A DNA stretch of 64,000 nt from Deltaproteobacteria bacterium (GCA_016931115.1 JAFGFM010000094.1:15063-79062), one strand, 5' to 3'; counted from the first letter of the stretch, positions 1,146 to 22,292 are shown. Numbers and translations: made by a program. The notes: a model not told the origin generated them from the sequence alone.

Positions 1146-1874
1146 ATGTTTAAATCAAAAATAGCCCTGATAACCGGAGGAAGCGGGGGTATTGGTTCTG
1201 CTATTGCTGTTGCACTTGCAAAGAAAGGGTTTGATATCTGGCTCCATTATAATAAGAATCAGGTCAAGGCTGAAAAGATTGCAGAAAATATCATGGAGGC
1301 TGGTGTAAAATGTAGCCTTCTGCAATTCGATGTTACTGATATGAATGCGGTAAAAAGTACCCTCGAACCCCTGCTTGAAGCTGATGTCCCATATGTGCTG
1401 GTAAACAATGCGGGTATAAGCCGTGATGCGCTTATGATATGGATGAGCAGGGAAGAATGGGATGATGTCCTTGCGATCAATCTTGACGGGTTTTTCAATG
1501 TAACAAAAATTGTATTAAACAGCATGCTCCGTAAAAGGGAGGGGAGGATAATCAATATCACCTCCACATCCGGCCAGAATGGCCTTGCAGGCCAGGTCAA
1601 TTACTCTACAGCAAAGGCAGGGTTGATCGGCGCAACAAAGTCTCTTGCAAAAGAGGTTGCAAAGCGTAATGTCCTTGTTAACGCAGTTGCGCCAGGATTT
1701 ATTGAAAGTGAAATGACTGAAAAACTTCCCAAGGATGATATCATTCAAATGATACCTTTAGGCCGTTTTGGTAAACCTGAAGAGGTTGCAGGGATTGTAT
1801 CATTCCTCTGCTCAGAGGATGCATCATATATTACCGGTCAGGTCTTTTCTGTTAATGGCGGCATATACATGTAG
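1146..1874 (+). CDS. fabG: 3-oxoacyl-ACP reductase (SDR, FabG-type ketoreductase)
   Basis: SDR motifs TGGSGGIGSAIA, NNAG and catalytic YSTAKAG (YxxxK). 242 aa, typical FabG length. Confidence 0.9.
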   Translation: MFKSKIALITGGSGGIGSAIAVALAKKGFDIWLHYNKNQVKAEKIAENIMEAGVKCSLLQFDVTDMNAVKSTLEPLLEADVPYVLVNNAGISRDALMIWMSREEWDDVLAINLDGFFNVTKIVLNSMLRKREGRIINITSTSGQNGLAGQVNYSTAKAGLIGATKSLAKEVAKRNVLVNAVAPGFIESEMTEKLPKDDIIQMIPLGRFGKPEEVAGIVSFLCSEDASYITGQVFSVNGGIYM

Positions 1875-1897
1875 ACATCAGGACAGCAGAATATTAA

Positions 1898-3118
1898 ATG
1901 AACAGAGTTGCAATAACAGGTATAGGTATTATCTCCTGTCTCGGTAATAATATCGAGGCTGTTGGAGACTCATTGCGTGAAGGCAGGTCAGGTATTGTTA
2001 TTGATGATATCAGGATTAAGATGGGTTTCCGCAGCCCCTTAACAGGCATGATAAAGGATTTTACACCTGAAGCGTATCTGTCAAGAAAACAGAGAAAGAC
2101 AATGCCTGATTTTGCTGTACAGGCATATGCGGCATCAATGGACGCCATCACCATGTCAGGTCTTGATGAAAAGGCAATCCAGAATCCGGAAACAGGCATC
2201 ATATTTGGATGCGATTCAAGTTGTATTGCCGCTGTTGAACAGGCAGCCCTTTTAAAAGAGACAGGTGAGACCAAATCCATAGGCAGCGGACTTGTTTTTC
2301 GCTCAATGACCTCAACCATAACCATGAACCTGAACACGATCCTTAAAACCAGAGGCGCATGCTGGACAATAAGCTCGGCCTGCTCCAGCGGAGGACATGC
2401 AGTAGGTCAGGCAGCAAACCTTATCGCCCTCGGTCAACAGGAACGTATTATCTGTGGTGGGGCACAGGAGATAAACTGGGAATCCATGTGCAGCTTTGAC
2501 GGTCTTGGCGCATTTTCTGCCAATATCAAAAATCCTGCGGCTGCAAGCAGACCCTTTGACATAAACAGGGATGGGCTTGTCCCGGGCGGAGGCGCAGCAG
2601 CAATTATACTTGAACGATATGATCTTGCCAGAAAAAGGGGTGCAAAGATTCTGGGTGAAATCAGGGGTTACGGCTTTTCCTCTGATGGCTCAAACCTCTC
2701 TGTTCCTGATAGTGATGGCCTGGCAAGGGCAATGAACATGGCCTTAAAGGGTTCAGGTGTTGTCACTTCAGAAATAGATTATATATGCGCCCATGCAACA
2801 TCAACACCGGCAGGGGATGCAGCTGAAGGCGCAAATATACTAAAGATATTTAATGAAAAAATACCCTTTATCTCTTCAACAAAATCAATGACAGGCCATG
2901 AATTATGGATGTCAGGTGCCTCACAGGTTGTCTATTCTGTTATTATGGCGCAGCAGAGTTTTATTGCCCCGAATATCAATTTTGAAAATCCCGACGAAGG
3001 CTTTGAAAGACTTAATATAGTCAGGGAAACAATAGAATTTGCACCCGGGAACATTCTATGCAATTCAGCGGGATTCGGCGGGACCAATTCCTGCCTGGTT
3101 ATACGAGTCGATCAATGA
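1898..3118 (+). CDS. beta-ketoacyl-ACP synthase (KS-1, FabF/FabB-like, Cys-His-His)
   Basis: Active-site SSACSSGGHA. His motifs HATSTPAGD and TGHELW. C-terminal NSAGFGGTNSCLVI. Confidence 0.9.
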   Translation: MNRVAITGIGIISCLGNNIEAVGDSLREGRSGIVIDDIRIKMGFRSPLTGMIKDFTPEAYLSRKQRKTMPDFAVQAYAASMDAITMSGLDEKAIQNPETGIIFGCDSSCIAAVEQAALLKETGETKSIGSGLVFRSMTSTITMNLNTILKTRGACWTISSACSSGGHAVGQAANLIALGQQERIICGGAQEINWESMCSFDGLGAFSANIKNPAAASRPFDINRDGLVPGGGAAAIILERYDLARKRGAKILGEIRGYGFSSDGSNLSVPDSDGLARAMNMALKGSGVVTSEIDYICAHATSTPAGDAAEGANILKIFNEKIPFISSTKSMTGHELWMSGASQVVYSVIMAQQSFIAPNINFENPDEGFERLNIVRETIEFAPGNILCNSAGFGGTNSCLVIRVDQ

Positions 3119-4617
3119 CCTATGATTGTGCAGTCATAGGCGCAGGTCTATCAGGGCTTGCCTCTGCTATCATCCTTTCAAAAAATGGCCTTAAAACCGC
3201 CCTGATAGAAAAATCATCCAGAACAGCCCCCCTGGTAAGGGGATTTAAAAGAGAAGGTCATTATTTTGATACCGGGTTTCATCATGCAGGGGGTATTAAT
3301 GAAGGTAGTACCGGCAGACTCATGCTTGATTATCTCGGCATTTCACAGCACCTTAACGTGGTCTCATCTAATAGTAATTATACCGATATGGTTAGATTCA
3401 GGGACTCCTCATTTGAATTCAGGTTTCCTGTCGGGATTAAACAGCTTAAGGATCGACTTGAACAGTTTTTCCCCGGTGATATAAATTTTATAAATAGATA
3501 CATTAATGAGATAAACAGGCAGTGTTCATTACTCCCATTTCTCAACCTGAATGCGGATATCAAGACAATGAATATCCTGGAAAATGTGCATGGTAATAGT
3601 CTTGCAGATTTCTTATCACACAATACAGATAATCCTTATCTTCAATCTGTGCTGACCATACACTCTCTTTTAAATGGAGTCCCTCCCGGCGAGCAGGGGT
3701 TGAATAATTATGCATATATAGTAGGCCCATATTATGAATCGGTAAGCTATATTGAGGGCGGCGGTTCTGCACTTGTGGCGGCATATGAAAAAGCAGCAAA
3801 AGAAAATGGAGTTGATATATTTTTAAACAGAGAGGCTCAAAAACTTATATTTTCATCATCAGGAGAGCTGAAGGGGACAGGTTTTAAAGATGGAGCAGAG
3901 ATCAACGCAAAAAATATAATATCTACAATACACCCTTCACAGCTTATGAATATTGTTCCTGAAAATCTTTTTCGGCCTTCGTATAACAAGAGGATTAAAA
4001 CACTTGATGAGACACCTTCAGCATTTATTCTATATGGCACCTCTGAAATCGATCTTAAAAGATTGATAGGGTCTAATCTCTATCTTGTTCCTGCTGATGG
4101 AAATAATTTTGGTGATTTCAGTAACCCCATTGAAAATCGCCCCATTAATATAATCATCTCAAATGCTGATAAAAAAGAAAATATTTTCCAGTGTATATTT
4201 ATTATGATATGCCCAGCCTCTATAAATGAGGTTGAGCAGTGGGGGAATTCAATCAGGGGAAAACGTCCACAGGGTTATCTGGAGTTCAAGGATAATATTT
4301 GCCGGAGAATGCTGGATTATTTTGTATCATACTACCCGGAACTAAAAGGTAAGATACATGCGGTTGATTTTTCAACCCCATTGACTTTGAAAGACTATTC
4401 AGGCAGCCCATTTGGAAGCATGTATGGCGCAAAACACAGGATAGAACAGTATAACCCTTTTCCCATGACAAGTATAAAGGGTTTGTATCTTGCCGGTCAA
4501 TCTATTGTTGCACCTGGCCTTTTAGGTACACTTATTTCAGCATTTCTGGCATGCGGTAATATACTGGGGCATGATTATCTTAGAGGAGCATTAAAAGTAT
4601 GGAACCAAGAAGAGTAG
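3115..4617 (+). CDS. FAD/NAD(P)-dependent oxidoreductase, phytoene-desaturase (CrtI)-like
   Basis: N-terminal dinucleotide fold MTYDCAVIGAGLSGLASAIIL...IEK. About 500 aa, CrtI-family length. ATG 3115 overlaps the KS-1 stop (ATGA). The track start 3058 lies inside KS-1 and is rejected. Confidence 0.8.
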   Translation: MTYDCAVIGAGLSGLASAIILSKNGLKTALIEKSSRTAPLVRGFKREGHYFDTGFHHAGGINEGSTGRLMLDYLGISQHLNVVSSNSNYTDMVRFRDSSFEFRFPVGIKQLKDRLEQFFPGDINFINRYINEINRQCSLLPFLNLNADIKTMNILENVHGNSLADFLSHNTDNPYLQSVLTIHSLLNGVPPGEQGLNNYAYIVGPYYESVSYIEGGGSALVAAYEKAAKENGVDIFLNREAQKLIFSSSGELKGTGFKDGAEINAKNIISTIHPSQLMNIVPENLFRPSYNKRIKTLDETPSAFILYGTSEIDLKRLIGSNLYLVPADGNNFGDFSNPIENRPINIIISNADKKENIFQCIFIMICPASINEVEQWGNSIRGKRPQGYLEFKDNICRRMLDYFVSYYPELKGKIHAVDFSTPLTLKDYSGSPFGSMYGAKHRIEQYNPFPMTSIKGLYLAGQSIVAPGLLGTLISAFLACGNILGHDYLRGALKVWNQEE

Positions 4618-5834
4618 TTATTACAGGAATGGGTGCTGTCTCACCCTTTGGTCAGGGGAGTGAAATATTCTATGATTCTCTTGTAAAAGGCAGGAGCGGG
4701 ATAATATGTCATCCTGATCTTGCATCCATGGAAGGTGTCCGCTCAATGGTGGCAGGTAAAGTTAAAAATATAGACCCGATGATTATACCCAGAAAGTTTC
4801 GACGTTCCATGTCAGATATGTCAGTCTACTCTGTTCTTGCCTGCCAGGAGGCGCTCTCTATGGCAGGCATTTTTCCGGAAAATTATTCAAATGACAACAT
4901 GGGGATTGTCCTCGGGTCGACAATAAACAGCATTGATACATTTGTTAATTTTTTCAATGATTACTTTGTTAATAAAAACATGGAGAACATGCGATCAACA
5001 ACCTTCTTTAAACTGATGAACCATTCCTGCGCCTTTAATGTCTCACAGGTCTTTGGTTTAAAGGGAAGGGTAATAGCCCCTTCTGCAGCATGTTCCACAG
5101 GTTGTCAGACAGTTGGTATTGGTTATGAGATGATAGCCTTCGGCAAGCAGGACTATATGCTGTGCGGGGGCGCAGATGAATATCATCCCTTTACCACCAT
5201 GTCTTTTGATCTGATCAATGCCGCTTCAACAAGCTATAATGGCTCTCCATCAAAAACCCCGAGGCCATTTGATCGTGACAGGGATGGAATGGTATGCTCT
5301 GAAGGGTGCGGGATACTGCTGCTTGAAACCCTTGAGTCGGCAAAAAAGAGGGGGGCTGAAATATTATCAGAGGTAATAGGGTTTGCCTCAACTGCAAATC
5401 CTGAAAATATCGCAAACCCCAGCGCTGAATCACTGATCGAGTGCATGAAAAAGGCATTGTCTGATGCAAATATATCTCCTCATGATGTTGACTATGTGAA
5501 TGCCCATGCGACTGGCACCATACAGGGAGATATTGAAGAGAGCAGGGCAATATACAGCGTTTTTGGGGGAGGTGTCCCGGTCAGCAGCCTTAAAGGGCAT
5601 ATTGGCCATACAATGGCAGCTAGCGGAAGCCTTGAATTGATTGCCTCTATTCATATGTTAAGAAAAAAAGAGGTAATACCTACCTTAAACCTTGAAAATA
5701 TTGATGATTTATGCAAGATAGTTAATTTTGTTCAATCTCTTGAAAAAAAAGAGATCAAATGTGTTTTAAAAAATAATTTTGCCCTTGGCGGGGTTAATTC
5801 ATGTCTGATAATACGGAGCTGTGAGCATGACTGA
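4599..5834 (+). CDS. beta-ketoacyl-ACP synthase (KS-2, Cys-His-His)
   Basis: PSAACSTGCQTVG active-site Cys. HATGTIQGD and GHIGHTMAASG His motifs. NNFALGGVNSCLII tail. Overlaps the upstream gene by 19 nt. Confidence 0.9.
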   Translation: MEPRRVVITGMGAVSPFGQGSEIFYDSLVKGRSGIICHPDLASMEGVRSMVAGKVKNIDPMIIPRKFRRSMSDMSVYSVLACQEALSMAGIFPENYSNDNMGIVLGSTINSIDTFVNFFNDYFVNKNMENMRSTTFFKLMNHSCAFNVSQVFGLKGRVIAPSAACSTGCQTVGIGYEMIAFGKQDYMLCGGADEYHPFTTMSFDLINAASTSYNGSPSKTPRPFDRDRDGMVCSEGCGILLLETLESAKKRGAEILSEVIGFASTANPENIANPSAESLIECMKKALSDANISPHDVDYVNAHATGTIQGDIEESRAIYSVFGGGVPVSSLKGHIGHTMAASGSLELIASIHMLRKKEVIPTLNLENIDDLCKIVNFVQSLEKKEIKCVLKNNFALGGVNSCLIIRSCEHD

Positions 5835-6090
5835 TGATGAAATTATAGATACCATAAACAGGGCGCTGGTAAAGGAGTTTGAGCTTGATAAAAAAAAGAT
5901 GCTTTCTGATGCCCATCTTTTTGATACCCTTGAACTGGATAGCCTTGATATGGTCGATATGGTTATTGTACTTGAAAATGCCTTCAAATTTAAAATAACC
6001 GAAGAAAAGGAGATCCGTGAAATCAGAACTCTTGGAGACATACATAATTTTGTAATTAAAAAAAGTAATGAGATCAGGAAGGGATCATAA
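5827..6090 (+). CDS. acyl carrier protein (ACP-1)
   Basis: Phosphopantetheine site LELDSLDMVDMV (DSL). 87 aa. ggag lies 8 nt before ATG 5827, while GTG 5821 in the track has no usable RBS spacing. Confidence 0.85.
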   Translation: MTDDEIIDTINRALVKEFELDKKKMLSDAHLFDTLELDSLDMVDMVIVLENAFKFKITEEKEIREIRTLGDIHNFVIKKSNEIRKGS

Positions 6091-6129
6091 TAATCCCTTT
6101 TCATTACCATCCTATGAAAGAAATGATAA

Positions 6130-6882
6130 ATGCCATTTGCAGGAAATTTTTCTATTTTGCTTATAAACCTGACGGTTTTTCCTCTCCTGATACTAATGAC
6201 TTTAGTAGGCATTATCATTTCACCATTTGCCTTTTTATTTTTTAAACTCATCGGAAACCTGGATAGAGTAAAAATCATCAGATATTTTGTATGGATTTAT
6301 GGAAAGGGGTGGCTTGCAATAATAAAACCCTTTACCGGTCTCACAGCCTCTGGTTTCAGAAGGGGAGAAATCCCTACCCCGTGCATAATTGTACTTAATC
6401 ATCTTTCCTTTTTTGATACATTTTTTATGGGAGTCCTTCCCTTCAGCAATGTTTGTTTTGCCCTGCGTTCATGGCCCTTTAAAATGGCCTGGTACCACCC
6501 CTTTATGAAGCTGGCTCAATACCTTGATGTGGAGAGACTTTCATGGGATGAGACACTCACTGCATCAAAGAAGATACTTAATGATGGCGGTGTACTTCTA
6601 CTGTTTCCAGAGGCTCATCGCAGCCGCGACGGCAGGATGGGCCGTTTTTATTCAGGGGCATTCAAGATATCCATCTCAACAAATTATCCGATTGTCCCTC
6701 TATGTATCACTGGTACTGGTGAGCTGTTGCCACCCGGAAGATGGTATCTGAAACCGGCGAAGGTTAAAATAAAGGCCCTTGCCCCTGTATATCCTGATGC
6801 CTTTACCGGTGAGAATGGCCACATTGAGATGCGTAAACATGTAAAAGCGCTTATTGCTGATGAAGTTGAACGAATGAGGTAA
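6130..6882 (+). CDS. 1-acyl-sn-glycerol-3-phosphate / lysophospholipid acyltransferase (PlsC family)
   Basis: HX4D motif NHLSFFDT and FPEAHRSRDG block. N-terminal membrane helices. Confidence 0.8.
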   Translation: MPFAGNFSILLINLTVFPLLILMTLVGIIISPFAFLFFKLIGNLDRVKIIRYFVWIYGKGWLAIIKPFTGLTASGFRRGEIPTPCIIVLNHLSFFDTFFMGVLPFSNVCFALRSWPFKMAWYHPFMKLAQYLDVERLSWDETLTASKKILNDGGVLLLFPEAHRSRDGRMGRFYSGAFKISISTNYPIVPLCITGTGELLPPGRWYLKPAKVKIKALAPVYPDAFTGENGHIEMRKHVKALIADEVERMR

Positions 6883-6892
6883 TTAGATATCA

Positions 6893-7336
6893 ATGAATAT
6901 AGTTACAAAATTACCAATATCTGCCGAGATGCTTGTTCCTCATCGGCCTCCCTTTCTTCTTGTAGATCGGTTGATTGAATTTTCCGGTGTGTCCGGTGTT
7001 GTGGAATCTTATATATCTATGGATAATCTTTTTGTTACAGAAGATGGTCACCTCAAGGAGATCGCCATGGTAGAGATACTTGCACAGTCAGCTGCTGCGG
7101 TTAAAGGCTACAGCGATTTACAGCAGGGTAAAGAGATAAGCATGGGTTTTCTCGTCGATATCAGGGGATTTAACTTTATAAAAAGATGCAATAAGGGTGA
7201 CACAATACAAACCAGGATAGAGATAACAAAGAGCTTTTCCGGTTTTTCTTTAATTAATGGTTCGCTGGTATGTTCAGGGAATGAGATTGCTTCAGGCTCT
7301 ATTAAATTATGGGTACCTGATGACAGTCAAAAATAA
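6893..7336 (+). CDS. hotdog-fold 3-hydroxyacyl-ACP dehydratase (FabZ/FabA-like, DH-1)
   Basis: N-terminal LVPHRPPFLLVDRLIEF, matching the FabZ LPHRYPFLLVDR signature. 147 aa. Confidence 0.8.
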   Translation: MNIVTKLPISAEMLVPHRPPFLLVDRLIEFSGVSGVVESYISMDNLFVTEDGHLKEIAMVEILAQSAAAVKGYSDLQQGKEISMGFLVDIRGFNFIKRCNKGDTIQTRIEITKSFSGFSLINGSLVCSGNEIASGSIKLWVPDDSQK

Positions 7337-7413
7337 GTTTTATTATGATGCGGTCGGGGATAAATCCTGACCCAGCCTATTTTTTCACAGGGTGGCTTTC
7401 TTGAACCATGATG

Positions 7414-7437: not shown

Positions 7438-7482
7438 AGAAAGATGATGCTACCTTGTTTCAAACATGAGTGAGAAAAAATT

Positions 7483-8124
7483 ATGCCTAAACACAGAATC
7501 ATATTTTTAACCATTCTTTTTGTTTTCACAGCCTGGATTTCCGGTGATGAACAGGGTGTGTCAGCTGATGAAGTCAAAACAGAGGCAATACTTCTTCGTA
7601 TCAAGCAGGCATCTTCCAATATAGAATCGCTGGAGGGCGATTTTGTCCAGAAGAAGAAACTGGAAATCCTCAAGGATATGCCTGATTCGTATGGCAAACT
7701 ATACTATATGAGCCCGGGCCGCCTTCGATGGGAGATAACCGCGCCTGTGATCATGGGTTTCATAATAAACGGGGAGCATGGTAAAAAATGGCGCGGTAAG
7801 GATGGCAGGTCAATGAAATTTGACCTGAGCAGGGAACCTCTAATTGCAGCGATCTCAAACCAGGTGTTTTCATGGGCAAGAGGTGATTATGAGAGGTTAA
7901 AGGCAGGTTATGATATCTCGATCTTAAGTGAAGAGCCTGTTGAGATAAGACTGAGACCCATTTCGCCTGTGGAGCAAAAATATATAGAATCAATAGACCT
8001 TGCCTTTTCTGAAGAGGAGAGTCATGTAACAAAAATAGAGATAAACGATAAAAAGGGCGGCTCCACACAGATCAGCTTTTCCAATATGAAAATAAACCCC
8101 GGACTTTCAGAGGAAATTTTTTAA
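7483..8124 (+). CDS. LolA-like outer-membrane lipoprotein carrier protein
   Basis: Signal peptide. LolA-like pattern LEGDFVQKKKLEILKDMPDSYGKLYYMSPGRLRWEI. Position next to an MMPL exporter, as in aryl-polyene clusters. Confidence 0.65.
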   Translation: MPKHRIIFLTILFVFTAWISGDEQGVSADEVKTEAILLRIKQASSNIESLEGDFVQKKKLEILKDMPDSYGKLYYMSPGRLRWEITAPVIMGFIINGEHGKKWRGKDGRSMKFDLSREPLIAAISNQVFSWARGDYERLKAGYDISILSEEPVEIRLRPISPVEQKYIESIDLAFSEEESHVTKIEINDKKGGSTQISFSNMKINPGLSEEIF

Positions 8125-10536: not shown

Positions 10537-10553
10537 TGCCCTGAGGTATGAGT

Positions 10554-13386: not shown

Positions 13387-13469
13387 AAAAATAGAGGTCA
13401 GGGATAAACCCTACCCTATGGTTCGTGCATGAGAATAAAAATTAATTATTTATCGCATAGAGGAAAATT

Positions 13470-14735
13470 ATGAATCTGACACTTATATACCCCAAATGGC
13501 CAAAACTGGATCGACAGACAGAATTTCACCTTCCGCCCCATGGGCCTGTTGTCTTTGCAGCGGAGGTTCCCAAGGATGTTAATCTGCAATTTATTGATGA
13601 GACCTTTGAAGAGATTGATTACACAAGCGCAACTGATCTTGTTGCACTCTCTGTCATGCTTACATGCCAGGTACCCAGGGCCATAGAGATAGCTGAACAA
13701 TACCGGGCAAAAAAAATCCCTGTCATATTTGGCGGTATTGCAACCATGCTTCACAGTGAGGAGCTAATGAACCACAGCGACTCGGTTTTTCTGGGTGAGG
13801 TTGAGGGACGTTTTGGCCAGGTTATTGATGATTTCAAAAACAGGCGACTTCAAAAGGTATATAACTATATGAATAACCTCCCTGATATCAACCTTGTCGG
13901 GACCGCCAGAAGAGAAATATTGAATTCAGATTATTATGCCTACAGAGGTGTAAAGATGCTTGATCTCGTGCATGCATCAAGGGGATGTAAATTCAACTGT
14001 TTCCCCTGTTGTGTCGGATACCTTGGTGGAAGGGTCTTCCGGCCAAGGCCTGTTGACAGAGTGATGGAAGAGATGAGCTCCATTCAGAATAACCGGCTCT
14101 TTATTGTGGATAACTCCCTTGCACAGGAGCGAGACTGGCTGAAAAAGCTCTTTACTGCCATGATACCGCTTAAAAAGACATGGGTTTCCCACCCTATCAT
14201 GGATGACGATGAGGTACTCACCCTTGCAAAGGATGCAGGCTGCTGGTATGTGTACCAGGCAATAGTGAATACATCAAATGGAATAAGAAACCGTGTCAGG
14301 CGTCTCAAAGAACATGGCATAGGTGTTGAAGGGACTATCCTTCTCGGGACAGATGACCAGACCGAAGATGACATCAAGCGCCTTGTTGATTTTCTGCTTG
14401 AGATAGAGCTGGACATGGCCGAGTTCACAATACTCACTCCCTTTCCCCACAGCCCGATCCGTGCAGATTATGAGAAAGAGGGCAGGATTATTTCAAACAA
14501 CTGGCTTGATTATACCTGCGATAAGGTAGTTTTCAAGCCAAAAAAAATGTCACCTGATACCCTTTATAAAATGTACCACTATGCATGGGATACATTTTAT
14601 TACAATACAAGCCCCAGCCTTAAAATGAGCTTCCTTTTTAAGAAGGCTGTAATGAGCGAAATGGAAAAGGGCACATACCGGCAGTACAATCCGCGTAAAA
14701 AACGTTCCTTTGTAAACAGGGAGAACAATGAGTAA
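13470..14735 (+). CDS. B12-binding-domain radical SAM enzyme (rSAM-1)
   Basis: N-terminal cobalamin-binding-like Rossmann region (DLVALSVML...IPVIFGGIATM). CX3CX2C cluster SRGCKFNCFPCC. C-terminal DUF4070-like tail. Confidence 0.85.
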   Translation: MNLTLIYPKWPKLDRQTEFHLPPHGPVVFAAEVPKDVNLQFIDETFEEIDYTSATDLVALSVMLTCQVPRAIEIAEQYRAKKIPVIFGGIATMLHSEELMNHSDSVFLGEVEGRFGQVIDDFKNRRLQKVYNYMNNLPDINLVGTARREILNSDYYAYRGVKMLDLVHASRGCKFNCFPCCVGYLGGRVFRPRPVDRVMEEMSSIQNNRLFIVDNSLAQERDWLKKLFTAMIPLKKTWVSHPIMDDDEVLTLAKDAGCWYVYQAIVNTSNGIRNRVRRLKEHGIGVEGTILLGTDDQTEDDIKRLVDFLLEIELDMAEFTILTPFPHSPIRADYEKEGRIISNNWLDYTCDKVVFKPKKMSPDTLYKMYHYAWDTFYYNTSPSLKMSFLFKKAVMSEMEKGTYRQYNPRKKRSFVNRENNE

Positions 14736-16101
14736 GGTACTGATGATATCATCAAATACCTTTGCCTATTCATACCCGGTTTATCCTCTTGGCATGGCAA
14801 TGGTAACAGGTGCACTGAAAAAAAAGGGGCACAGTGTGGTTCAGTTTGATTATTCCGCCCATGAATATCCGGAAGAAGAACTGAGGAAGAGAATAATTGA
14901 TTTTGCACCCGATTACATCGGCATATCTGTAAGAAACATTGATGAAGTGGATTCAATGAGCATAGAGCCATCAGTGCTTGGCATTGAAAAAAGGATTGTG
15001 AGCATTATCAGAAACACAACCAGTGCTGCTATTATTATAGGGGGTTCAGCCTTTTCCATTATGCCTGAAGAGATTCTTGAATATACAGGCGCTGATTATG
15101 GCATTGTCGGCGCAGGAGAAGGTCAGGTAACAGGGCTCATAGAGTCTCTTAAACTTGGCAAACCTGTGCCCCGGATATCAAGGGGCTGCCCGCTTAATAT
15201 CGATTGCAGCAATAACATCTCCCCTGAATGGGAAAAGGTAATGGTTGATTTTTACATAAAGAAAAGCGGCATGCTTAATATCCAGACAAAAAGGGGGTGC
15301 CCCTATAACTGTTCATACTGTGTTTATCCATCCCTTGAAGGAAAGAGCTTCAGATATCGTGACCCTGATGCAGTGATATATGATATTAAAAGGGCATACA
15401 GTGAATTCAACGTGAATACCTTCTTTATTACCGACTCCATATTCAATGACCCTGAAGGCCATTACCTTGAAATCGCCGAAAAGATTATACAATCGGGTAT
15501 GAATATCAGGTGGGCAGGTTATTTCAGACCAAAAGGGGTGAGCCAGGATGAATTCAGGCTCCTTAAACGTTCAGGCCTTTATGCGGTTGAGGTAGGGGCA
15601 GACGCAGGTTGTGACCATACCCTTTATGAAATGGGAAAGGGTTTTACATTTGAGGATATTATGGGATTTTACCGGGGATGCCTTAATGAAGGGATAGCAA
15701 GCGCCTATTTCTTTATCTTCGGAGGTCCTGGTGAGACCGGCAAAACCATTGATGAAGGGTTAATTAACCTGAAACAGCTTGAACATGGTGTTATTTTTAT
15801 TTACTCGGGTATAAGGATTCTGCCCGGGACAGGGCTCTACAGGCTTGCATTAAAGGAAAATATTATTTCAGAGGAAGATTCACTGCTGAGGCCAGTATAT
15901 TATTTTTCACCGGGCATTGATGTTAATGAGATGAACAGAAAGATCATTGAGGAGGCGGAGAAAAACCGAAGGTATATTTTCCCCCCTGAAAAGGGCAAGC
16001 TCATGATTGATGCCATGCATGCATTCGGTTACAGGGGGTTGTTATGGGATGAGCTTCTCAAAGTAACCGGCAGGTCAGAAAGGCACAGGAAGAGGCACTA
16101 A
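14728..16101 (+). CDS. B12-binding-domain radical SAM enzyme (rSAM-2, lipid-biosynthesis type)
   Basis: N-terminal B12-like domain (DYIGISVRN...IIIGGSAFS). TKRGCPYNCSYCVY cluster. 8-nt overlap with rSAM-1. Confidence 0.85.
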   Translation: MSKVLMISSNTFAYSYPVYPLGMAMVTGALKKKGHSVVQFDYSAHEYPEEELRKRIIDFAPDYIGISVRNIDEVDSMSIEPSVLGIEKRIVSIIRNTTSAAIIIGGSAFSIMPEEILEYTGADYGIVGAGEGQVTGLIESLKLGKPVPRISRGCPLNIDCSNNISPEWEKVMVDFYIKKSGMLNIQTKRGCPYNCSYCVYPSLEGKSFRYRDPDAVIYDIKRAYSEFNVNTFFITDSIFNDPEGHYLEIAEKIIQSGMNIRWAGYFRPKGVSQDEFRLLKRSGLYAVEVGADAGCDHTLYEMGKGFTFEDIMGFYRGCLNEGIASAYFFIFGGPGETGKTIDEGLINLKQLEHGVIFIYSGIRILPGTGLYRLALKENIISEEDSLLRPVYYFSPGIDVNEMNRKIIEEAEKNRRYIFPPEKGKLMIDAMHAFGYRGLLWDELLKVTGRSERHRKRH

Positions 16102-16104
16102 AAG

Positions 16105-17550
16105 ATGGGGCATCCTGATTTCAAGAATATCCTGCTTGTTCATCCCCTTGGCTATAAAAAGAGTGCAGCCAGGCAGGATGTGTCAAGGCTTGCCAATATT
16201 ATGCCTCCACTAGGGCTGGCAAGTATATCCGCCTATCTTGAGCAGCGTGGGACAGAAACCGCTATTATTGACTCTTATGCAAACCCTGACTCAGACCTGC
16301 TCATACAGAGTTATCTGCATGAGAAAACGCCAGCATATTTAGGGATAAGCTGCACAACATCCAGTTTTCTTGATGGTGTCCGAATAGCATCCATGGCAAA
16401 AAAGGTGTTGCCTGAAATAAAAGTAATATTTGGCGGTCCCCATGTCTCGGCCCTCAAGGGAAAGATACTTGAAGGGTATCCTCTAATAGATTTTTGTGCT
16501 ATTGGTGAGGGTGAGGTGACACTCTCGGAACTGATAGAGTCAGGCGGGGAGGATGCTGCAAAGATTGAGGGGCTTGCATACAGGGATTCGGGGAATGGGA
16601 TTCATGTCAATTCATACAGGTCAAATCTACTTGAACTTGACAGGCTCCCCTTTCCTGCATATTCAAAACTGAATGGATATCCAGTTGCCTACATGCTCCC
16701 CATATTCAACTATCCCGTCTCCCCGAATACCAGCTGTATTTCCAGCCGGGGATGCCCTTATGCATGCAGTTACTGTGACAGGTCAGTATTTCAAAGAACC
16801 TTTCGATACAACTCTGCTGAATACCTTTATGAGCATCTGAGATATTTGAAAGACAGATTCAATATAAGGCATATAAATTTTTATGATGACCAGTTTACAT
16901 TTAACAGGAAAAGGGTAGAGGCCTTTGCAGGGCTGATGATTGCAAGGCCCCTTAATATGACATTCAACTGTGCTGTAAGGGCGGAACATATAGATATGGA
17001 TCTGCTCCTTTTGATGAAGAGGGCCGGATGCTGGATGATAAGCCTCGGTATAGAATCTGGTGATGACAAACTGCTCTCCATGCATCGACAGAATGTCAAT
17101 TCTGAAATGATGAGGGAAAAAATTCATATGATAAAAAAGGCCGGTATCAGGACAAAGGGGCTCTTTATGATAGGCCTGCCCGGTGAAACAGTTGAGAGCA
17201 TTAAAAGGAGTATAGCATTCTACAGCTCCCTGCCCATTGATGAGATAAACGTTGCAAAATTTACCCCCTTTCCCGGGACACCTTTATATGAAAAAATTGT
17301 CCGGTCAGGCGGATTTACTGAAGAGTGGGAAAAGATGGACTGCATGCATTTTTTGTATATACCTGAAGGGATGGATGTTCAAACCCTGGAAACCTATTTT
17401 ATTAAGTTTTATAAGGCCCATTTTTCAAGATTAAGAACTATTGTGAGCTATATATCCATGATCTGGAAATCTCCTGAGAGCTGGAAACGATTTATCGTAA
17501 GCATGAGGAGATTTCTCCTCTTTGCCAAAAGTAATAAAAGATTTAATTGA
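16105..17550 (+). CDS. B12-binding-domain radical SAM enzyme (rSAM-3)
   Basis: B12-like domain (YLGISCTT...VIFGGPHVS). SSRGCPYACSYCDR cluster. Starts 3 nt after the rSAM-2 stop. Confidence 0.85.
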   Translation: MGHPDFKNILLVHPLGYKKSAARQDVSRLANIMPPLGLASISAYLEQRGTETAIIDSYANPDSDLLIQSYLHEKTPAYLGISCTTSSFLDGVRIASMAKKVLPEIKVIFGGPHVSALKGKILEGYPLIDFCAIGEGEVTLSELIESGGEDAAKIEGLAYRDSGNGIHVNSYRSNLLELDRLPFPAYSKLNGYPVAYMLPIFNYPVSPNTSCISSRGCPYACSYCDRSVFQRTFRYNSAEYLYEHLRYLKDRFNIRHINFYDDQFTFNRKRVEAFAGLMIARPLNMTFNCAVRAEHIDMDLLLLMKRAGCWMISLGIESGDDKLLSMHRQNVNSEMMREKIHMIKKAGIRTKGLFMIGLPGETVESIKRSIAFYSSLPIDEINVAKFTPFPGTPLYEKIVRSGGFTEEWEKMDCMHFLYIPEGMDVQTLETYFIKFYKAHFSRLRTIVSYISMIWKSPESWKRFIVSMRRFLLFAKSNKRFN

Positions 17551-17564
17551 CAGAACTGTAACCC

Positions 17565-18743
17565 ATGACAGAGAGCACACAAATAAAGGCAGCGGTTTTG
17601 ATACCTGTCTATAATAACCCTGAAACCATAAGGGATGTTACAGCAAAGACCCTGATGTTTCATCCAAATGTTATTGTGGTTGATGATGGAAGCGATACTG
17701 AGGTCTCGGGTTTAATATCGGGTCTTGATGTTGCAGTTTTGCGTCATCCACAGAACATGGGAAAGGGTTCAGCAATTCTTAAAGGTGCTGCAATGGCCCG
17801 AAGCATGGGGTTTACACATATTATTACCATTGATGCAGATGGTCAGCATGACCCATCCGATATTCCGAAAATGTTATCCGCGATTGAAAAAACCCCTGAT
17901 TCTATTATTGTTGGAAAACGCAATTTCTCTAATGCAGATGTGCCACGATCATCTGTATTCGGCAGGGGTTTTTCAAATTTCTGGCTCAGGGTGCAGACAG
18001 GAAGGTCGGTTGGTGACAGCCAGAGCGGGTTCAGGGCATACCCTCTCTATCTGCTTAATGAACTAAAACTGAGTGAAAGACATTATTCATTTGAGGTTGA
18101 GGTACTGGTAAAGGCGATATGGGCAGGGGTTAATGTTATCGATGTGGACGTAACGGTCTATTATCCGCCGGGTGATAAAAGGGTTACACACTTTAAGGCC
18201 TTCAGGGATAACCTGCGCATCAGCATCCTGAACACCAAACTTACCATGAGGTCTGTACTTCCCTGGCCCCATCGCAAGATTGTTTTTGATATTATAAAAA
18301 ACAGGAGCGTCTCTATATGGCACCCTGTAAAATCTATAAGGAGACTGCTTACTGAAAATGCCACCCCTCACAAGATCGCCATTGCAGGGGGTATCGGGGT
18401 CTTTCTGGGTGCGCTCCCTCTTATTGCCTGTCACATGATTGTTATCATTATGGTTACCTCTTTTTTCAGGCTGAACAAGGTTGTTGCGCTTAGCTCCAGC
18501 CAGCTGTGTATGCCCCCCTTTATGCCTGCTATATGTATTGAGGCCGGATATTTTATGAGAAACTGGAGTTTTCTTACTGAAATATCTATTGAGACCATAG
18601 GATATCAGGCAATTGACAGGCTTTATGAATGGCTGATCGGCTCACTTATTGTCGGCCCTGTTGCAGGTATAATAACAGGGCTTATCCTGTTTCTTATGGC
18701 CATTGTAATCAGGAAAGGTACAGATGGGATTGCACGGAAGTGA
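17565..18743 (+). CDS. family 2 glycosyltransferase fused to a C-terminal membrane (DUF2062-like) domain
   Basis: VLIPVYNNPETI, VVDDGSDT and TIDADGQHDP (DxD) GT2 motifs. Hydrophobic C-terminal third. Confidence 0.85.
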   Translation: MTESTQIKAAVLIPVYNNPETIRDVTAKTLMFHPNVIVVDDGSDTEVSGLISGLDVAVLRHPQNMGKGSAILKGAAMARSMGFTHIITIDADGQHDPSDIPKMLSAIEKTPDSIIVGKRNFSNADVPRSSVFGRGFSNFWLRVQTGRSVGDSQSGFRAYPLYLLNELKLSERHYSFEVEVLVKAIWAGVNVIDVDVTVYYPPGDKRVTHFKAFRDNLRISILNTKLTMRSVLPWPHRKIVFDIIKNRSVSIWHPVKSIRRLLTENATPHKIAIAGGIGVFLGALPLIACHMIVIIMVTSFFRLNKVVALSSSQLCMPPFMPAICIEAGYFMRNWSFLTEISIETIGYQAIDRLYEWLIGSLIVGPVAGIITGLILFLMAIVIRKGTDGIARK

Positions 18744-19659
18744 AAAAAATACTGAAGATAAAAGGATATGGACAAGCCGCAGTATTGGTTCTTATATACA
18801 GCACCAGTTTTTTTATGCGCTGATAAGAATAGGCGGGAGAAGACTGGCCTATTTCTTTTTATATTTTATACTGGCATATTATGTCCTGATGAGGCCATCG
18901 GTCAGACGCAGATGTTACTTTTATCTTTCACACAGGTTTCCGGGTGAATCTTCCTTAAAGAGAATAGCTCACGGTTATCGACTCTACCTTAATTTTGGTA
19001 TGGTGCTGATTGACCGTGCAATTATCGGTATACTTGGAAACGAAATGATGTCAGTTTCTTTTAATCAGAGGGAGAGCCTTAAAAATCTTGTCTCTGAAGG
19101 CAAAGGGGTAATATTCCTTATGGCCCATGCCGGATGCTGGCAGGTCGCCCTCTCTGCCCTGGGCTATCTCAAAACACGTGTTAACATGGTCATAAGGAGA
19201 GAAGAGGGAGATATTGACAGGCATTATTTTGAGCACCAGTCTAACGATACGCCTTTCAACATAATAGATCCTGAAGGGTATCTTGGCGGGACCATTGAGA
19301 TGATAAATGCCCTGAAAAACGGTGAGATAGTCTCCATTATGGGTGATCGTATTTTCGGGAGCCTGAAAAATACAGTGCATGTTGATTTCATGGGGGAAAA
19401 GGCCCTGTTTCCTTTCAGCGCATTCAAGGTTGCCTCAGCAACAGGCTCTCCTATCGCCCTTCTTTTTACACATAAAAATGGAGCAGATCATTTTGTGCTT
19501 GATCTTGCAAAGGTGATTCATGTGCCTGAAGGGCTGGGCAGGTCAGGGGAAGGATATCTGCCCTATGTAATAGAGTTTGTAAAAATTCTTGAAGGCTATG
19601 CTGAGACGCATCCATTTCAGTTTTTTAATTTTTATGATATGTGGAGGCCCTCTCCATAA
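18724..19659 (+). CDS. LpxL/HtrB-family lipid acyltransferase
   Basis: N-terminal membrane anchor. MAHAGCWQVA resembles the HxGNWE acyltransferase motif. 311 aa. 20-nt overlap with the GT2 gene. Confidence 0.7.
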   Translation: MGLHGSEKNTEDKRIWTSRSIGSYIQHQFFYALIRIGGRRLAYFFLYFILAYYVLMRPSVRRRCYFYLSHRFPGESSLKRIAHGYRLYLNFGMVLIDRAIIGILGNEMMSVSFNQRESLKNLVSEGKGVIFLMAHAGCWQVALSALGYLKTRVNMVIRREEGDIDRHYFEHQSNDTPFNIIDPEGYLGGTIEMINALKNGEIVSIMGDRIFGSLKNTVHVDFMGEKALFPFSAFKVASATGSPIALLFTHKNGADHFVLDLAKVIHVPEGLGRSGEGYLPYVIEFVKILEGYAETHPFQFFNFYDMWRPSP

Positions 19660-19760
19660 TCGGCCTTTATTCTATATTTGCTTGATTTATTACATTAATC
19701 GGAATAGTTAATAACTTTAAAATAACTGGTATTAAATACTCACCGCGAGGAGTCAAACGA

Positions 19761-20018
19761 ATGACAATTAATATGGAAGAGCTGAAGGAGATAATTATAA
19801 AAGAACTTTTTCTTGAGGATATCACCCCGGGGGATATTGATGACAACGCACCCCTTTTCGGAGGGGGATTGGGTCTTGATTCCCTTGATGCAGTTGAACT
19901 GGTAGTTATCATTCAGAAACACTTTAATGTAGAAATAAAGGATATGGATGAGGGAAGGGTTGCATTTGAATCAATTAAATCACTTGCTTCGTTTATTGAG
20001 GAACATCAGAAATCATGA
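19761..20018 (+). CDS. acyl carrier protein (ACP-2)
   Basis: GLGLDSLDAVELV phosphopantetheine site. 85 aa. gaggag RBS 9 nt upstream. Confidence 0.85.
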   Translation: MTINMEELKEIIIKELFLEDITPGDIDDNAPLFGGGLGLDSLDAVELVVIIQKHFNVEIKDMDEGRVAFESIKSLASFIEEHQKS

Positions 20019-21214
20019 ACCGTGGCGCACCTGTTGCAATAACTGGAACAGGCTGTCTGAGCGCATCAGGGGAATCCCTGATGCAGAACATGAAAACTGT
20101 TTTTTCAGGTAAAAGGGCTCCTGGTAAGCCAGGGGCCTTTTCCTCTTCCCATCCAGTGATCTACCCGGTTTTTGAAATAAAATATCCTATTCCCCATATA
20201 AATGATCAGCATAAAAAATATCTCTCCAGGACAGCCCAACTGGCGCTGGCAGCCGCTGCTGAGGCCATTATGGATGCAGGGCTTGACACTGAGGCAATGA
20301 ATGGTCTCAGGGTCGGTGTATGCATGGGTACCACTGTAGGCAGTACAATGAATGATGAAAAGTTTTACAGGGATTTTAAAAACAGGCTTGAACCTGATAT
20401 GTCTGCCATAAGCCGATATCTTAATAGCAACCCCTCTTCGGTTATCTCTAAAGAGTATTCCCTTAAAGGGCCGTGCCAGACCATTGTAAATGCCTGTTCT
20501 TCCGGCACAGATGCTATTGGCATAGGTGCATCATGGATAAGGAGTGGTATATGTGACATTGTTATCGCAGGAGGCGCTGACGAGCTTAGCCGCATCTCAT
20601 ATAACGGGTTTATATCCCTGATGATTACTGATTCAGATCCATGCAGGCCATTTGACAAAAACCGCAAAGGCCTTAATCTGGGCGAAGGGGCAGGATTGGT
20701 GGTGCTTGAAAGTGAGTATTCACTCAAAAGACGCAATAAAAGGGCAAAAGCATTTGTCATTGGATATGGTTCTGCCAGTGACGGGTATCATCTTACTGCA
20801 CCACACCCGGAGGGAAGGGGTTTAAAAAGGGCCATTGCAGATGCATTTATTGAGAGTGGGAAAAAGGCCAGTGATATAGGCTTTATAAATGCACACGGGA
20901 CAGCAACACCTGAAAATGACCTGGCTGAGGCCAGGGTGCTGAGGGAAATATTCAGCGGTATACCTTTTCTCTCTACAAAGGGGTATACAGGCCACACACT
21001 TGGTGCAGCAGGGGCCATTGAGGCGGTATATACAGTGGCATCCCTTGAGGCAGGCCAGATCCCTGTCAGTGCTGGATTCTCAGAAATCGATCCTTATGCA
21101 GCCATTTCACCTGTGACTGAAAATACCGGTATAAGTCTCAAAACAGCCCTGTCAGAATCACTGGCATTTGGCGGGCAGAATGCAGTACTGATCCTGACCA
21201 CAGAAGGGATTTAG
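20015..21214 (+). CDS. beta-ketoacyl-ACP synthase (KS-4, Cys-His-His)
   Basis: VNACSSGTDAIG Cys, HGTATPEND and GHTLGAAGAIEA His motifs. ATGA overlap with the ACP-2 stop. Confidence 0.9.
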   Translation: MNRGAPVAITGTGCLSASGESLMQNMKTVFSGKRAPGKPGAFSSSHPVIYPVFEIKYPIPHINDQHKKYLSRTAQLALAAAAEAIMDAGLDTEAMNGLRVGVCMGTTVGSTMNDEKFYRDFKNRLEPDMSAISRYLNSNPSSVISKEYSLKGPCQTIVNACSSGTDAIGIGASWIRSGICDIVIAGGADELSRISYNGFISLMITDSDPCRPFDKNRKGLNLGEGAGLVVLESEYSLKRRNKRAKAFVIGYGSASDGYHLTAPHPEGRGLKRAIADAFIESGKKASDIGFINAHGTATPENDLAEARVLREIFSGIPFLSTKGYTGHTLGAAGAIEAVYTVASLEAGQIPVSAGFSEIDPYAAISPVTENTGISLKTALSESLAFGGQNAVLILTTEGI

Positions 21215-21215
21215 A

Positions 21216-22292
21216 ATGAAGATATATATCAATGGAACAGGTATTGCCGGGGGATTTGGTTGCGGTTCAAATGTGCTTTTGAATCGGCTCCATACAGGTG
21301 TTGCATGTGAGCCATCTTCACAGGATGGATATTATCCTGCCTTTCATGCTGATATCTCCTCTCTGTATGATTTTGTTCCAAAAAAGTCATTAAGAAGGAT
21401 AGACCATTTTTCACAGCTTGCCCTTACAGGTGCATATCTGACGTTTAATGAGGCTGGGCAGGATTCATTTGATAAAATGGCGACCGGCCTTGTTCTATGT
21501 TCAGGATATGGTTCAGCCAAAACAACCTTCTCCTTTCTTGATTCCATTATTGATTCTGGTGATATCTGTGCATCCCCAACTCTCTTTTCAAACTCGGTAC
21601 ATAATGCTGCTGCGGGGCACATCTCCATGATGCTTGGCATTGAAGGCCCATGCCTGACTGTCAGCCAGTTTGAGATATCTGTTTATTCAGGGCTGCTTAG
21701 CGCCATTCAATGGCTTCGTGAAGAGAGGGTGGGGCAGGTGCTTTTTGGTGCGGTTGATGAATATTTTGATGTTTTGGGCTACTGCTATCAGCGCAGGTAT
21801 GGAAGGAATAGCAATATCTCCATGTCACCACTTGCACCAGGGATTCAAAGCGCTGTGCCTGGCGAAGGGGCTGCATTTTTTCTGCTATCCCGTGACAAGG
21901 CAACAAACTGTTATGGGGCAATCACCTCTGTTAATACCGGCAGCGTAAAAGACTTTGATGACATCCTTCCTGAAGAGAGTTTTTATATCCTGAATGCAGA
22001 CGGGCATATTGAATCTGACAAAAATTACTCTAAAATTATACCAGAGGGCTCTCTGGTCTCATGCTATACCCCTTATTATGGCTCTATACCGACCGGGCCC
22101 GCCTTTGATATGGCAATAGCAGCCCTTTCACTAAGAGAGGGGCGGATTTTTCCCGTGCCGGTAAATGTGATACGCCCTGATAACTATCGAATTCCGGTAC
22201 AAGAGAGTACATTGAATCAAGGAAATATCTCATGTGTAAAGGCAGGAGTAAAGGGTGAATTCAGTATTATAACCCTGTCACACCCCGGCTGA
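21216..22292 (+). CDS. KS-like protein lacking active-site Cys (chain-length-factor-like partner, long form)
   Basis: Thiolase-fold length of 358 aa. The position of the ACSS motif reads TVSQFEISVYSG with no Cys. Starts 1 nt after the KS-4 stop. Confidence 0.7.
   Translation: MKIYINGTGIAGGFGCGSNVLLNRLHTGVACEPSSQDGYYPAFHADISSLYDFVPKKSLRRIDHFSQLALTGAYLTFNEAGQDSFDKMATGLVLCSGYGSAKTTFSFLDSIIDSGDICASPTLFSNSVHNAAAGHISMMLGIEGPCLTVSQFEISVYSGLLSAIQWLREERVGQVLFGAVDEYFDVLGYCYQRRYGRNSNISMSPLAPGIQSAVPGEGAAFFLLSRDKATNCYGAITSVNTGSVKDFDDILPEESFYILNADGHIESDKNYSKIIPEGSLVSCYTPYYGSIPTGPAFDMAIAALSLREGRIFPVPVNVIRPDNYRIPVQESTLNQGNISCVKAGVKGEFSIITLSHPG

Follow-up and report, generated by a model that had tools for sequence, protein, structure and literature searches.

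Described pathways related to the cluster

The 64,000-nucleotide stretch of Deltaproteobacteria bacterium DNA analysed here (GCA_016931115.1 JAFGFM010000094.1:15063-79062; hereafter the window) carries on its + strand, from position 1146 onwards, a cluster of lipid biosynthesis genes that was compared with aryl polyene (ape), flexirubin and anammox gene clusters. The core of the ape biosynthetic gene cluster was defined by Grammbitter et al. as ketosynthases (KS; apeO, apeR), acyl carrier proteins (ACP; apeE, apeF), a chain length factor (CLF; apeC), dehydratases (DH; apeI, apeP), a ketoreductase (KR; apeQ) and a transporter (apeM). The aryl polyene lipid (APEL) is built on a glycerol-phosphate-GalNAc backbone that bears three acyl groups. 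A non-aryl conjugated 26:5 chain is assembled on ApeF, ApeD then transferring it; the sugar carries an aryl polyene that is assembled on ApeE and added by ApeJ; the third group is a saturated fatty acid (bioRxiv 10.1101/2020.12.19.423268). The same work reports that Xenorhabdus ApeJ glycosylates the phosphoglycerolipid and acylates the sugar, and that export is carried out by ApeM, ApeL and ApeN.

Radical S-adenosylmethionine (SAM) and CrtI-like genes have not been reported in flexirubin clusters (PMC3992019). Clusters resembling kuste3335-3352 of the anammox bacterium Kuenenia were described by Rattray et al. 2009 in Desulfotalea psychrophila, Geobacter and Pelobacter, the Deltaproteobacteria being named as carriers; no ladderanes were detected in D. 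psychrophila, which made C31:8 and C31:9 hydrocarbons (PMC2649909). The cluster is not discussed in the Pelobacter carbinolicus genome paper. Javidpour et al. obtained no new products in E. coli, where kuste3336 and kuste3607 did not replace CrtI (PMC4790861). A second anammox locus, Cluster I, was reported to be restricted to ladderane producers, and a KS/CLF-like pair of the anammox system decarboxylates malonyl-ACP to start synthesis (bioRxiv 10.64898/2026.05.19.726425).

The window cluster is an ordinary representative of a known, widespread and orphan family. On balance it probably encodes an anaerobe-type pathway of the APEL/flexirubin class, whose product would be an outer-membrane glycolipid with polyene acyl chains tailored by radical SAM enzymes. 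The initial annotation had proposed a polyunsaturated acyl lipid anchored in the outer membrane and modified by radical chemistry; in substance this reading stands as the likely one, while the rarity and the ladderane link that accompanied it were overstated.

Gene content and comparison with ape clusters

The ORF listing has 21 + strand ORFs between 1146 and 22292, with start/stop overlaps at 3115/3118, 4599/4617, 5827/5834, 14728/14735, 18724/18743 and 20015/20018. Domains were called by Pfam and NCBIfam profile scans, whose bit scores were compared with the curated cutoff of each family. Together they confirm the co-directional genes, the overlaps and the domains of the initial annotation. 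The ORFs are:

g01, 1146..1874, + strand: 3-oxoacyl-ACP reductase (ApeQ/FlxB-like KR); Pfam adh_short_C2 192 bits, FabG models
g02, 1898..3118, + strand: KS, FabB/ApeR-like; Cys-His-His, 31% identical to ApeR
g03, 3115..4617, + strand: CrtI-family FAD oxidoreductase; Amino_oxidase 51 bits, TIGR02734 77.6 bits, below the cutoff of 238
g04, 4599..5834, + strand: KS, ApeR-like; Cys-His-His, 38% identical to ApeR
g05, 5827..6090, + strand: ACP, ApeF-like; PP-binding, 40% identical to ApeF
g06, 6130..6882, + strand: PlsC-type acyltransferase, ApeD-like; PF01553 63.6 bits, 26% identical to ApeD
g07, 6893..7336, + strand: hotdog DH, ApeP-like; FabZ models weak, blastp to ApeP E 3e-8
g08, 7483..8124, + strand: LolA-like periplasmic lipid carrier (ApeL/LolA2_flexi-like); PF03548 62.5 bits, NF053544 113.8 bits, below the cutoff of 125
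g09, 8125..10536, + strand: MMPL/RND exporter, ApeM-like; PF03176, HpnN/HAE3 models, weak blastp match to ApeM
g10, 10548..10922, + strand: hotdog DH, ApeI-like; FabA/ApeI-like models weak, blastp to ApeI E 1.5e-5, PF22818 precomputed
g11, 10940..11401, + strand: 4HBT thioesterase, ApeK-like; PF13279 55.7 bits, 32% identical to ApeK
g12, 11398..12522, + strand: KS; Cys-His-His in the alignment
g13, 12527..13228, + strand: KS-N-like protein without Cys or His by alignment; presumed CLF-like partner of g12
g14, 13470..14735, + strand: B12-binding radical SAM protein A; C173/C177/C180
g15, 14728..16101, + strand: TIGR04072 'lipid biosynthesis B12-binding/radical SAM protein'; 588.6 bits (cutoff 360), C191/C195/C198
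g16, 16105..17550, + strand: B12-binding radical SAM protein C, HpnJ/BchE-like; C217/C221/C224
g17, 17565..18743, + strand: GT2 glycosyltransferase with DUF2062; 35% identical to the ApeJ N-terminal part over 234 amino acids
g18, 18724..19659, + strand: LpxL-family acyltransferase; PF03279 43.7 bits, 25% identical to ApeJ over 318 amino acids
g19, 19761..20018, + strand: ACP, ApeE-like; NF006617 72.4 bits, above the cutoff of 70, 47% identical to ApeE
g20, 20015..21214, + strand: KS, ApeO-like; Cys-His-His, 33% identical to ApeO
g21, 21216..22292, + strand: CLF-like KS homolog without Cys or His by alignment; PF13723 48 bits

Direct blastp of the window proteins against the E. coli CFT073 ape cluster gave an Ape protein as best match for 14 of the 21 genes (g01/ApeQ, g02 and g04/ApeR, g05/ApeF, g06/ApeD, g07/ApeP, g08/ApeL, g09/ApeM, g10/ApeI, g11/ApeK, g17 and g18/ApeJ, g19/ApeE, g20/ApeO), so that the ape-like chassis recognised earlier is well founded. 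The reductase g01 is 45% identical to ApeQ. Within the core set of Grammbitter et al. every member has a distinct best match except ApeC, whose CLF role falls to g21. The similarity to the ape clusters of CFT073 and Xenorhabdus doucetiae (apeA-R) thus extends to the ApeQ KR, the ApeR/ApeO KS, a Cys-less partner, the ApeI/ApeP pair, the ApeE/ApeF ACPs, the ApeK thioesterase, the ApeD acyltransferase, the ApeJ functions and export by ApeL (LolA) and ApeM (MMPL), as well as to the lack of an enoyl reductase. ApeJ is a fused protein in the ape systems but is split in the window into g17 and g18, the latter presumably corresponding to the C-terminal segment.

Alignment of the six KS-like proteins found Cys-His-His in g02, g04, g12 and g20, whereas g13 and g21 lack all three residues, as expected from the four Cys-His-His ketosynthases and two Cys-less partners announced at first reading. 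The g13 and g21 families match each other with an hhalign probability of 99.7%, and g21 is named 'beta-ketoacyl synthase chain length factor' by NCBI. The CLF assignment is based on position, on the missing catalytic residues and on PF13723, the hhalign match to ApeC being weak. The top PDB match of g20 is 9s5h, possibly an anammox amxFabF heterodimer, and was given no weight here. On contig L082, from the same organism, the g07 gene carries a PF22817 annotation.

The Pfam and NCBIfam scans detected no enoyl reductase, methyltransferase, AMP-binding or aromatic-lyase domain in the proteins of the full 25-gene cluster, which bears out the absence of an enoyl-ACP reductase from the cluster. The blastp comparison with CFT073 identified no counterpart of the adenylating enzyme ApeH, the methyltransferase ApeB, ApeG, ApeN or ApeA among the window cluster proteins, and with no lyase or ligase in the 64-kb window the reported lack of starter activation and class I methyltransferase genes holds. 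Relative to ape the window has in addition a second ApeR-like KS (g02), g03, g12/g13, g14-g16 and genes for a PagL-like protein, a BamE-like protein, a GT28 glycosyltransferase and a hydrolase-SPASM fusion (see below). The hosts of the window-type cluster are strict anaerobes, unlike the ape hosts compared.

Distribution and gene order

A database search with g15 (E<=1e-20, 8000 candidates scored) yielded relatives in at least 3956 protein clusters, and a scan of one genome per species found relatives of the locus in at least 559 species genomes. The carriers are mostly Desulfobacterota (Desulfatiglandales, Geobacter, Desulfuromonadales, Desulfobacterales, Desulfovibrionales, Desulfobulbales). 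Among the matches listed there are also a few Acidobacteriota, Nitrospirota and Omnitrophota and single Lentisphaerae, Opitutales, Victivallales and Calditrichota. Carriers available in culture include Geothermobacter hydrogeniphilus HR-1 (L043), Desulfovibrio sp. 7SRBS1 (L060), Geobacter species and Desulfotalea psychrophila. The best 80 loci from the at least 559 genomes, 42 of which are full loci, were annotated with the window proteins. In these best 80 the order from g04 to g21 followed by the PagL-like gene (d1) is kept almost gene for gene. The order g01 to g21 plus d1 recurs in Desulfobacterota, Acidobacteriota, Lentisphaerota, Nitrospirota, Omnitrophota and further groups. The combination of genes had been described as unusual; it is instead the commonest variant of a very large family for which a dedicated model, TIGR04072, exists. 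Genome-mining tools such as antiSMASH label this cluster type 'ladderane', a label that has given puzzling reports outside anammox bacteria. The family is among the most widespread orphan lipid/pigment pathways of anaerobic Gram-negative bacteria, and its interest lies in its chemistry, not in anything special about the present copy.

The starter slot and links to flexirubin clusters

Genes of the related loci without a counterpart in the window were clustered and then scanned with the profiles. One large group is an aromatic amino acid ammonia-lyase that scores 545 bits with PF00221 and stays below cutoff for HAL (500 bits, cutoff 524) and FlxA (473 bits, cutoff 700); another is a FlxY-like AMP ligase (455 bits against 520). 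Other large groups are a SPASM radical SAM enzyme, a DarG-family protein (136.7 bits against 70), DarH (466.9 against 300) and an ABC-2 transporter. The starter genes, lyase or ligase, are always found in one slot, between g06 and g07. This slot holds a lyase in 23 loci, a ligase and/or the SPASM enzyme in about five and nothing in 47, as in the window. About one third of the relatives have a tyrosine/histidine-type ammonia-lyase there, with or without the FlxY-like ligase; Geobacter is among the lyase carriers. Confinement of the starter genes to a single place fits a swappable module: the family combines a variable starter module with a constant flexirubin/APE-like chassis, and the window has the commonest, starter-less form. 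The aryl-free chassis of the initial annotation is therefore correct for the window but not for the family as a whole, given the third of its members that carry an aryl-starter module.

Resemblances to flexirubin (and arcuflavin) clusters are of two kinds. In the window they are tentative: g01 and g08 score just under the FlxB (324.6 bits against 340) and LolA2_flexi cutoffs, respectively. In relatives of the same gene order the FlxA-like lyase and FlxY-like ligase (both below cutoff), the DarG-family protein, DarH and the ABC-2 transporter are found. A tblastn search of the whole 64-kb window with the relatives' lyase (FlxA-like), ligase (FlxY-like), DarG and DarH retrieved nothing; DarA and DarB were not searched for. 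The DarG-family protein, DarH, the ABC-2 transporter and a further ACP lie downstream of the PagL-like gene in L013, L017, L031, L040, L043, L046, L048, L058 and other loci. These dialkylresorcinol-type accessory genes suggest that a flexirubin-like ester partner is made in those relatives.

The two closest relatives of the locus, L083 (a Desulfatiglandales genome) and L084, show what precedes the cluster. It begins at the FabG gene in both, preceded by unrelated genes (a transposase and a two-component system in L083, FtsK and MiaA in L084), and no starter gene was found within 8 kb upstream of it in either. An aryl-starter module encoded just upstream, which would have changed the initial picture, is thus missing from both.

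These data bear on a first alternative, that the product is a true aryl polyene lipid whose aryl starter comes in trans, either from the anaerobic breakdown of aromatics (e.g. as benzoyl- or 4-hydroxybenzoyl-CoA) or through a ligase or lyase encoded elsewhere, with g15 methylating the ring. The lyase-bearing third of relatives with the same chassis speaks for it, as does the fact that the nearest characterised relatives of g15, TsrM and BzaD, methylate aromatic sp2 carbons. The organism is moreover close to Desulfatiglans/Desulfatiglandales, to which close relatives belong, a group that degrades aromatics anaerobically. No lyase, ligase or chorismate-utilising gene was found, however, in the 64 kb, nor in the 8 kb upstream of the cluster in L083 and L084, and loading of an aryl acid on an ACP needs an enzyme of the ApeH/FlxY type, which is absent from the cluster. 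The majority of loci (the 47 above) have the starter-less form, which argues for a self-sufficient pathway. We regard a starter supplied in trans as unlikely, though as an alternative to be kept in view.

The CrtI-like flavoenzyme

The AlphaFold2 model of g03 (pLDDT 83) has carotenoid desaturases as best fold matches (4rep, 5mog, 4dgk). By its modelled fold g03 is confidently assigned to the CrtI family, a fold compatible with either a desaturase or a saturase. Its homologs bear the automatic JGI name 'all-trans-retinol 13,14-reductase', a retinol saturase. A scan of metagenome contigs anchored on g03 collected 80 loci, and in all 69 with a visible neighbour g03 is located between the g02 and g04 homologs (order g01 g02 g03 g04 g05 g06). 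The flavoenzyme gene is thus co-conserved with the KS/ACP core, as the initial annotation required.

The B12-binding radical SAM proteins

The CxxxCxxC motif is intact in g14, g15 and g16. Most of the 80 genome loci retain radical SAM genes together with the KS/ACP core, so that their co-conservation, on which the initial annotation depended, also stands. In the 42 full loci, g15 is present in 41 and g16 in 28. The loci that span the radical SAM region include 30 with all of g12-g16, six with g15 only and five that lack only g16. Hence g15 is the universal extra and marker of the family, g12/g13/g14 show modular behaviour, and the gene most readily dispensed with is g16.

The nearest solved structure to g15 is TsrM (PDB, E 9e-29), and its nearest NCBIfam models are BzaD, TsrM and PhpK. 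This proximity is the reason to propose that g15 is most likely a C-methyltransferase taking the place of the class I enzyme ApeB. The g16 protein resembles HpnJ, BchE, AprD4 and TokK. The g14 protein has no close characterised relative; between phyla it is better conserved than any other cluster protein (58-82% identity over the loci, median 68%). It is also the worst annotated of the three, with Pfam matches below cutoff.

The module formed by a KS (g12), its catalytically dead partner (g13) and g14, the window's closest relative of the anammox proteins kuste3608 and kuste2803, could carry out radical C-C bond formation (ring closure or iterative branching) on the growing polyene-ACP. We consider this reading of the module a long shot. 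If true, it would mean that anaerobes carry in their outer membranes polyene lipids of a class not yet described, carbocyclic or heavily branched, and would offer in Geobacter, Desulfovibrio and Geothermobacter a tractable model for the chemistry thought to underlie ladderane synthesis. A fatty-acyl/polyketide lipid as the substrate of three conserved class B radical SAM enzymes would in itself be new enzymology.

Relation to the anammox loci

The Kuenenia proteins of Javidpour Table S6 and of the Cluster I locus (L166) were compared with the window. The truncated kuste3342 is 38.5% identical to g15 and likewise belongs to TIGR04072 (401.8 bits, cutoff 360). The features of the TIGR04072 cassette recur in the window: g15 above cutoff, a linked CrtI-like flavoprotein and several FabF paralogs that include dead ones. 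All are shared with kuste3335-3352 and with D. psychrophila DP185x, which also have in common with the window FabG, FabZ-like proteins, ACPs and a glycosyltransferase. The PaaK-like ligase kuste3344, the SPASM radical SAM enzyme kuste3343 and the SAM methylases kuste3338 and kuste3347 belong to the Kuenenia locus and are absent from the window. The nearest window relation of kuste3343 is a distant match to d4 (28% identity over 112 amino acids), and its likeness is to the SPASM enzyme of other relatives (48% identity), whose gene is not in the window.

Cluster I (amxACP, amxFabZ, amxFabF2, amxFabFmut, PDH and a B12-radical SAM protein), currently the preferred candidate for ladderane synthesis, has kinds of parts in common with the window, including a KS and a dead KS beside a B12-radical SAM gene, but orthology is not supported. 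Its proteins (kuste3603-3608) are 21-37% identical to window proteins. AmxFabF2, the one protein with comparable matches on both sides, is as close to E. coli ApeR (34%) as to g04 (33%) or g20 (37%). The flavoproteins kuste3336 and kuste3607 are 25-26% identical to g03 (25% for kuste3336). For kuste3608 and kuste2803 the best window match is g14, at 27-29% identity (E 1e-35 to 1e-39), and all 120 matches listed in a search with kuste3608 are of anammox/Brocadiales type with at least 54% identity. Of the 'same combination' that had been claimed for the window and Kuenenia, the TIGR04072 family (g15/kuste3342) and the kinds of parts are retained; Cluster I orthology and the ligase, methylases and SPASM enzyme are not.

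Ladderane-like (cyclobutane) or other carbocyclic lipids formed by radical SAM cyclisation of a polyene are, on this evidence, very improbable products. The membership of g15 in the equivalog family of kuste3342 and the position of g14, which is the window's closest protein to kuste3608/kuste2803 and like them adjoins a KS and a Cys-less KS, are what points to them. On the other side, ladderanes were not detected in D. psychrophila and are reported only from anammox bacteria, Cluster I identities are low with an amxFabF2 no closer to the window than to E. coli Ape, and the family is found in hundreds of non-anammox species.

Anaerobic synthesis of polyunsaturated membrane fatty acids or hydrocarbons, a route proposed by Rattray et al. 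for the Kuenenia and Desulfotalea clusters with the CrtI-like and radical SAM proteins as desaturases, appears scarcely more probable. It can draw on the C31:8 and C31:9 hydrocarbons of D. psychrophila, which has a similar cluster (PMC2649909), and on the lack of an enoyl reductase. That link is however only correlative. A KR and a DH acting without enoyl reductase give conjugated polyenes directly, so that no desaturase is needed, and the set of LolA, MMPL, glycosyltransferase and acyltransferase genes suggests that a glycolipid is exported. In other organisms C31:9 hydrocarbons arise through Pfa and Ole enzymes, which also counts against this route.

Lipid transfer and downstream genes

The co-directional gene run does not stop at 22292, where the initial annotation placed the end of the cluster. 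It is four genes longer and continues unbroken to 26652, making 25 + strand genes from 1146. The additional genes, each of which is tied to the cluster in related loci, are:

d1, 22392..22988, + strand: PagL-like outer-membrane beta-barrel (lipid deacylase fold); PF09411 75.3 bits
d2, 23033..23605, + strand: BamE-domain protein; domain scan
d3, 23688..24896, + strand: GT28/UDP-glycosyltransferase; domain scan
d4, 24898..26652, + strand: alpha/beta-hydrolase (residues 1-200) fused to radical SAM/SPASM (C280/C284/C287)

In 25 of the 42 full loci d1 follows g21, and more than 20 related loci have a d2 homolog immediately before g01. In the related loci d4 always adjoins d3, and the pair is inside the cluster in L053 (between g16 and g17), L066 (between g15 and g17) and L005 (between g15 and g18). 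In the window d3 and d4 are separated by a one-base gap; d4 is an unusual fusion.

Genes g18 and d1 invite another explanation, lipid A/lipopolysaccharide remodelling, in which g18 would put an unusual polyene or branched acyl chain, assembled on the cluster's dedicated ACPs, on lipid A and d1 would remove the resident chain. The match of g18 to the lipid A acyltransferase family, that of d1 to PagL (lipid A 3-O-deacylase) at 75 bits with its conserved location beside g21, and the linked BamE-like protein are consistent with this idea. However, g17 and g18 match ApeJ, which in Xenorhabdus acts on a phosphoglycerolipid instead of lipid A. The cluster also encodes an MMPL/LolA export route of its own in place of Msb/Lpt. 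We judge lipid A remodelling improbable.

Predicted pathway and product

For the preferred reading, an APEL/flexirubin-class glycolipid, a pathway can be proposed in which all steps are assigned by homology, modelled on that of Xenorhabdus APEL (bioRxiv 10.1101/2020.12.19.423268). In a first arm (g01-g06) the KS g04 and g02, the reductase g01 and the dehydratases g07/g10 would build an acyl chain on the ACP g05, predicted to be a conjugated polyene because there is no enoyl reductase. The flavoenzyme g03 may adjust the saturation pattern of this chain, and the ApeD-like g06 would transfer it to a lysophospholipid. In a second arm (g17-g21), g20 with its Cys-less partner g21 would make another polyene on the ACP g19. 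Since this variant has neither lyase nor ligase, g20/g21 may self-prime by decarboxylation of malonyl-ACP or take an acyl starter. The GT2 enzyme g17 would put a sugar on the lipid and g18 would acylate that sugar, the pair doing the job of the fused ApeJ.

Tailoring by g15 would consist in C-methylation of an sp2 or sp3 carbon, in place of ApeB. Further radical steps, methylation or C-C bond formation, may be performed by g12/g13/g14 and g16 during or after elongation. The thioesterase g11 would edit or release intermediates, g09 and g08 would take the lipid to the outer membrane, and there d1 may trim or transfer an acyl chain.

Several points weigh against this scheme. We found in the literature no characterised product for any member of the family. 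The counterparts of ApeM, ApeL, ApeD, ApeI and ApeP have identities of 20-31%, the Ape matches of g07, g08, g09 and g10 being weak, and g13 and g21 match ApeC with hhalign probabilities of 1% and 55%, respectively. The fold of g03 does not separate desaturase from saturase, and the reactions of the radical SAM proteins are not readable from sequence, class B enzymes being known to catalyse also cyclisations and ring contractions. A starter gene may also lie farther upstream than the window reaches. The constant chassis, the swappable slot and the universal TIGR04072 protein nevertheless yield a concrete picture, that of an APEL-like outer-membrane glycolipid with polyene chains probably tailored by radical SAM enzymes. 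They also provide a sharpened search image for such clusters: an aryl-polyene-lipid chassis, a swappable starter slot and a TIGR04072 radical SAM protein as the one universal extra.

Cluster boundaries, gene starts and neighbouring genes

The region preceding g01 has the following organisation:

974..1099, + strand: upstream boundary; terminator-like hairpin at 974-1011, then a promoter-like site at 1071-1099 (10/12)

The hairpin is perfect and exceptionally long (17-bp stem, 4-nt loop) and separates an outer membrane protein gene from the operon promoter. This upstream barrel gene (241-825) is unrelated to the operon, with no counterpart in any of the 42 full related loci. Rfam and tRNA scans of the window gave no match, a cobalamin riboswitch being among the elements not found. 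The GC content is 0.41-0.46 inside the cluster and 0.37-0.47 in the rest of the window, a similarity that gives no sign of recent transfer.

The g13 ORF most likely starts at ATG 12527 (233 amino acids), as in the gene call of the same gene. The g12 protein probably has about 374 amino acids: homology to its relatives already starts at 11431, whereas the first canonical start codon is GTG 11518. The frame is open and from 11431 is 58% identical to the L084 homolog, with neither ATG nor GTG nor TTG ahead of that codon. At 11398 an ATA codon shares bases with the stop codon of g11 (ATAG). Such an arrangement suggests a non-canonical start or termination-reinitiation for g12.

A conserved gene coding for about 260 amino acids, which has no Pfam or NCBIfam match, is located between the MMPL gene and the ApeI-like dehydratase gene in 27 related loci (e.g. 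L052:4517-5299). It is absent from the window, where the corresponding gap has 11 bases.

Genes in the segment 36183-63828 are unrelated to the cluster. They code for an Abhydrolase_10 protein, a GH9 cellulase-like protein, a TPP enzyme, an ABC1 kinase, an AcrB-type RND pump, an HD/HDOD protein, a large TPR protein and FliF. Convergent with the operon end, on the - strand, lies a polysaccharide deacetylase gene (26661-27386; PF01522, 110 bits). It was discarded as a cluster member, homologs being found in only four to five related loci; FlxP of flexirubin clusters and kuste3351 of Kuenenia are proteins of the same kind.

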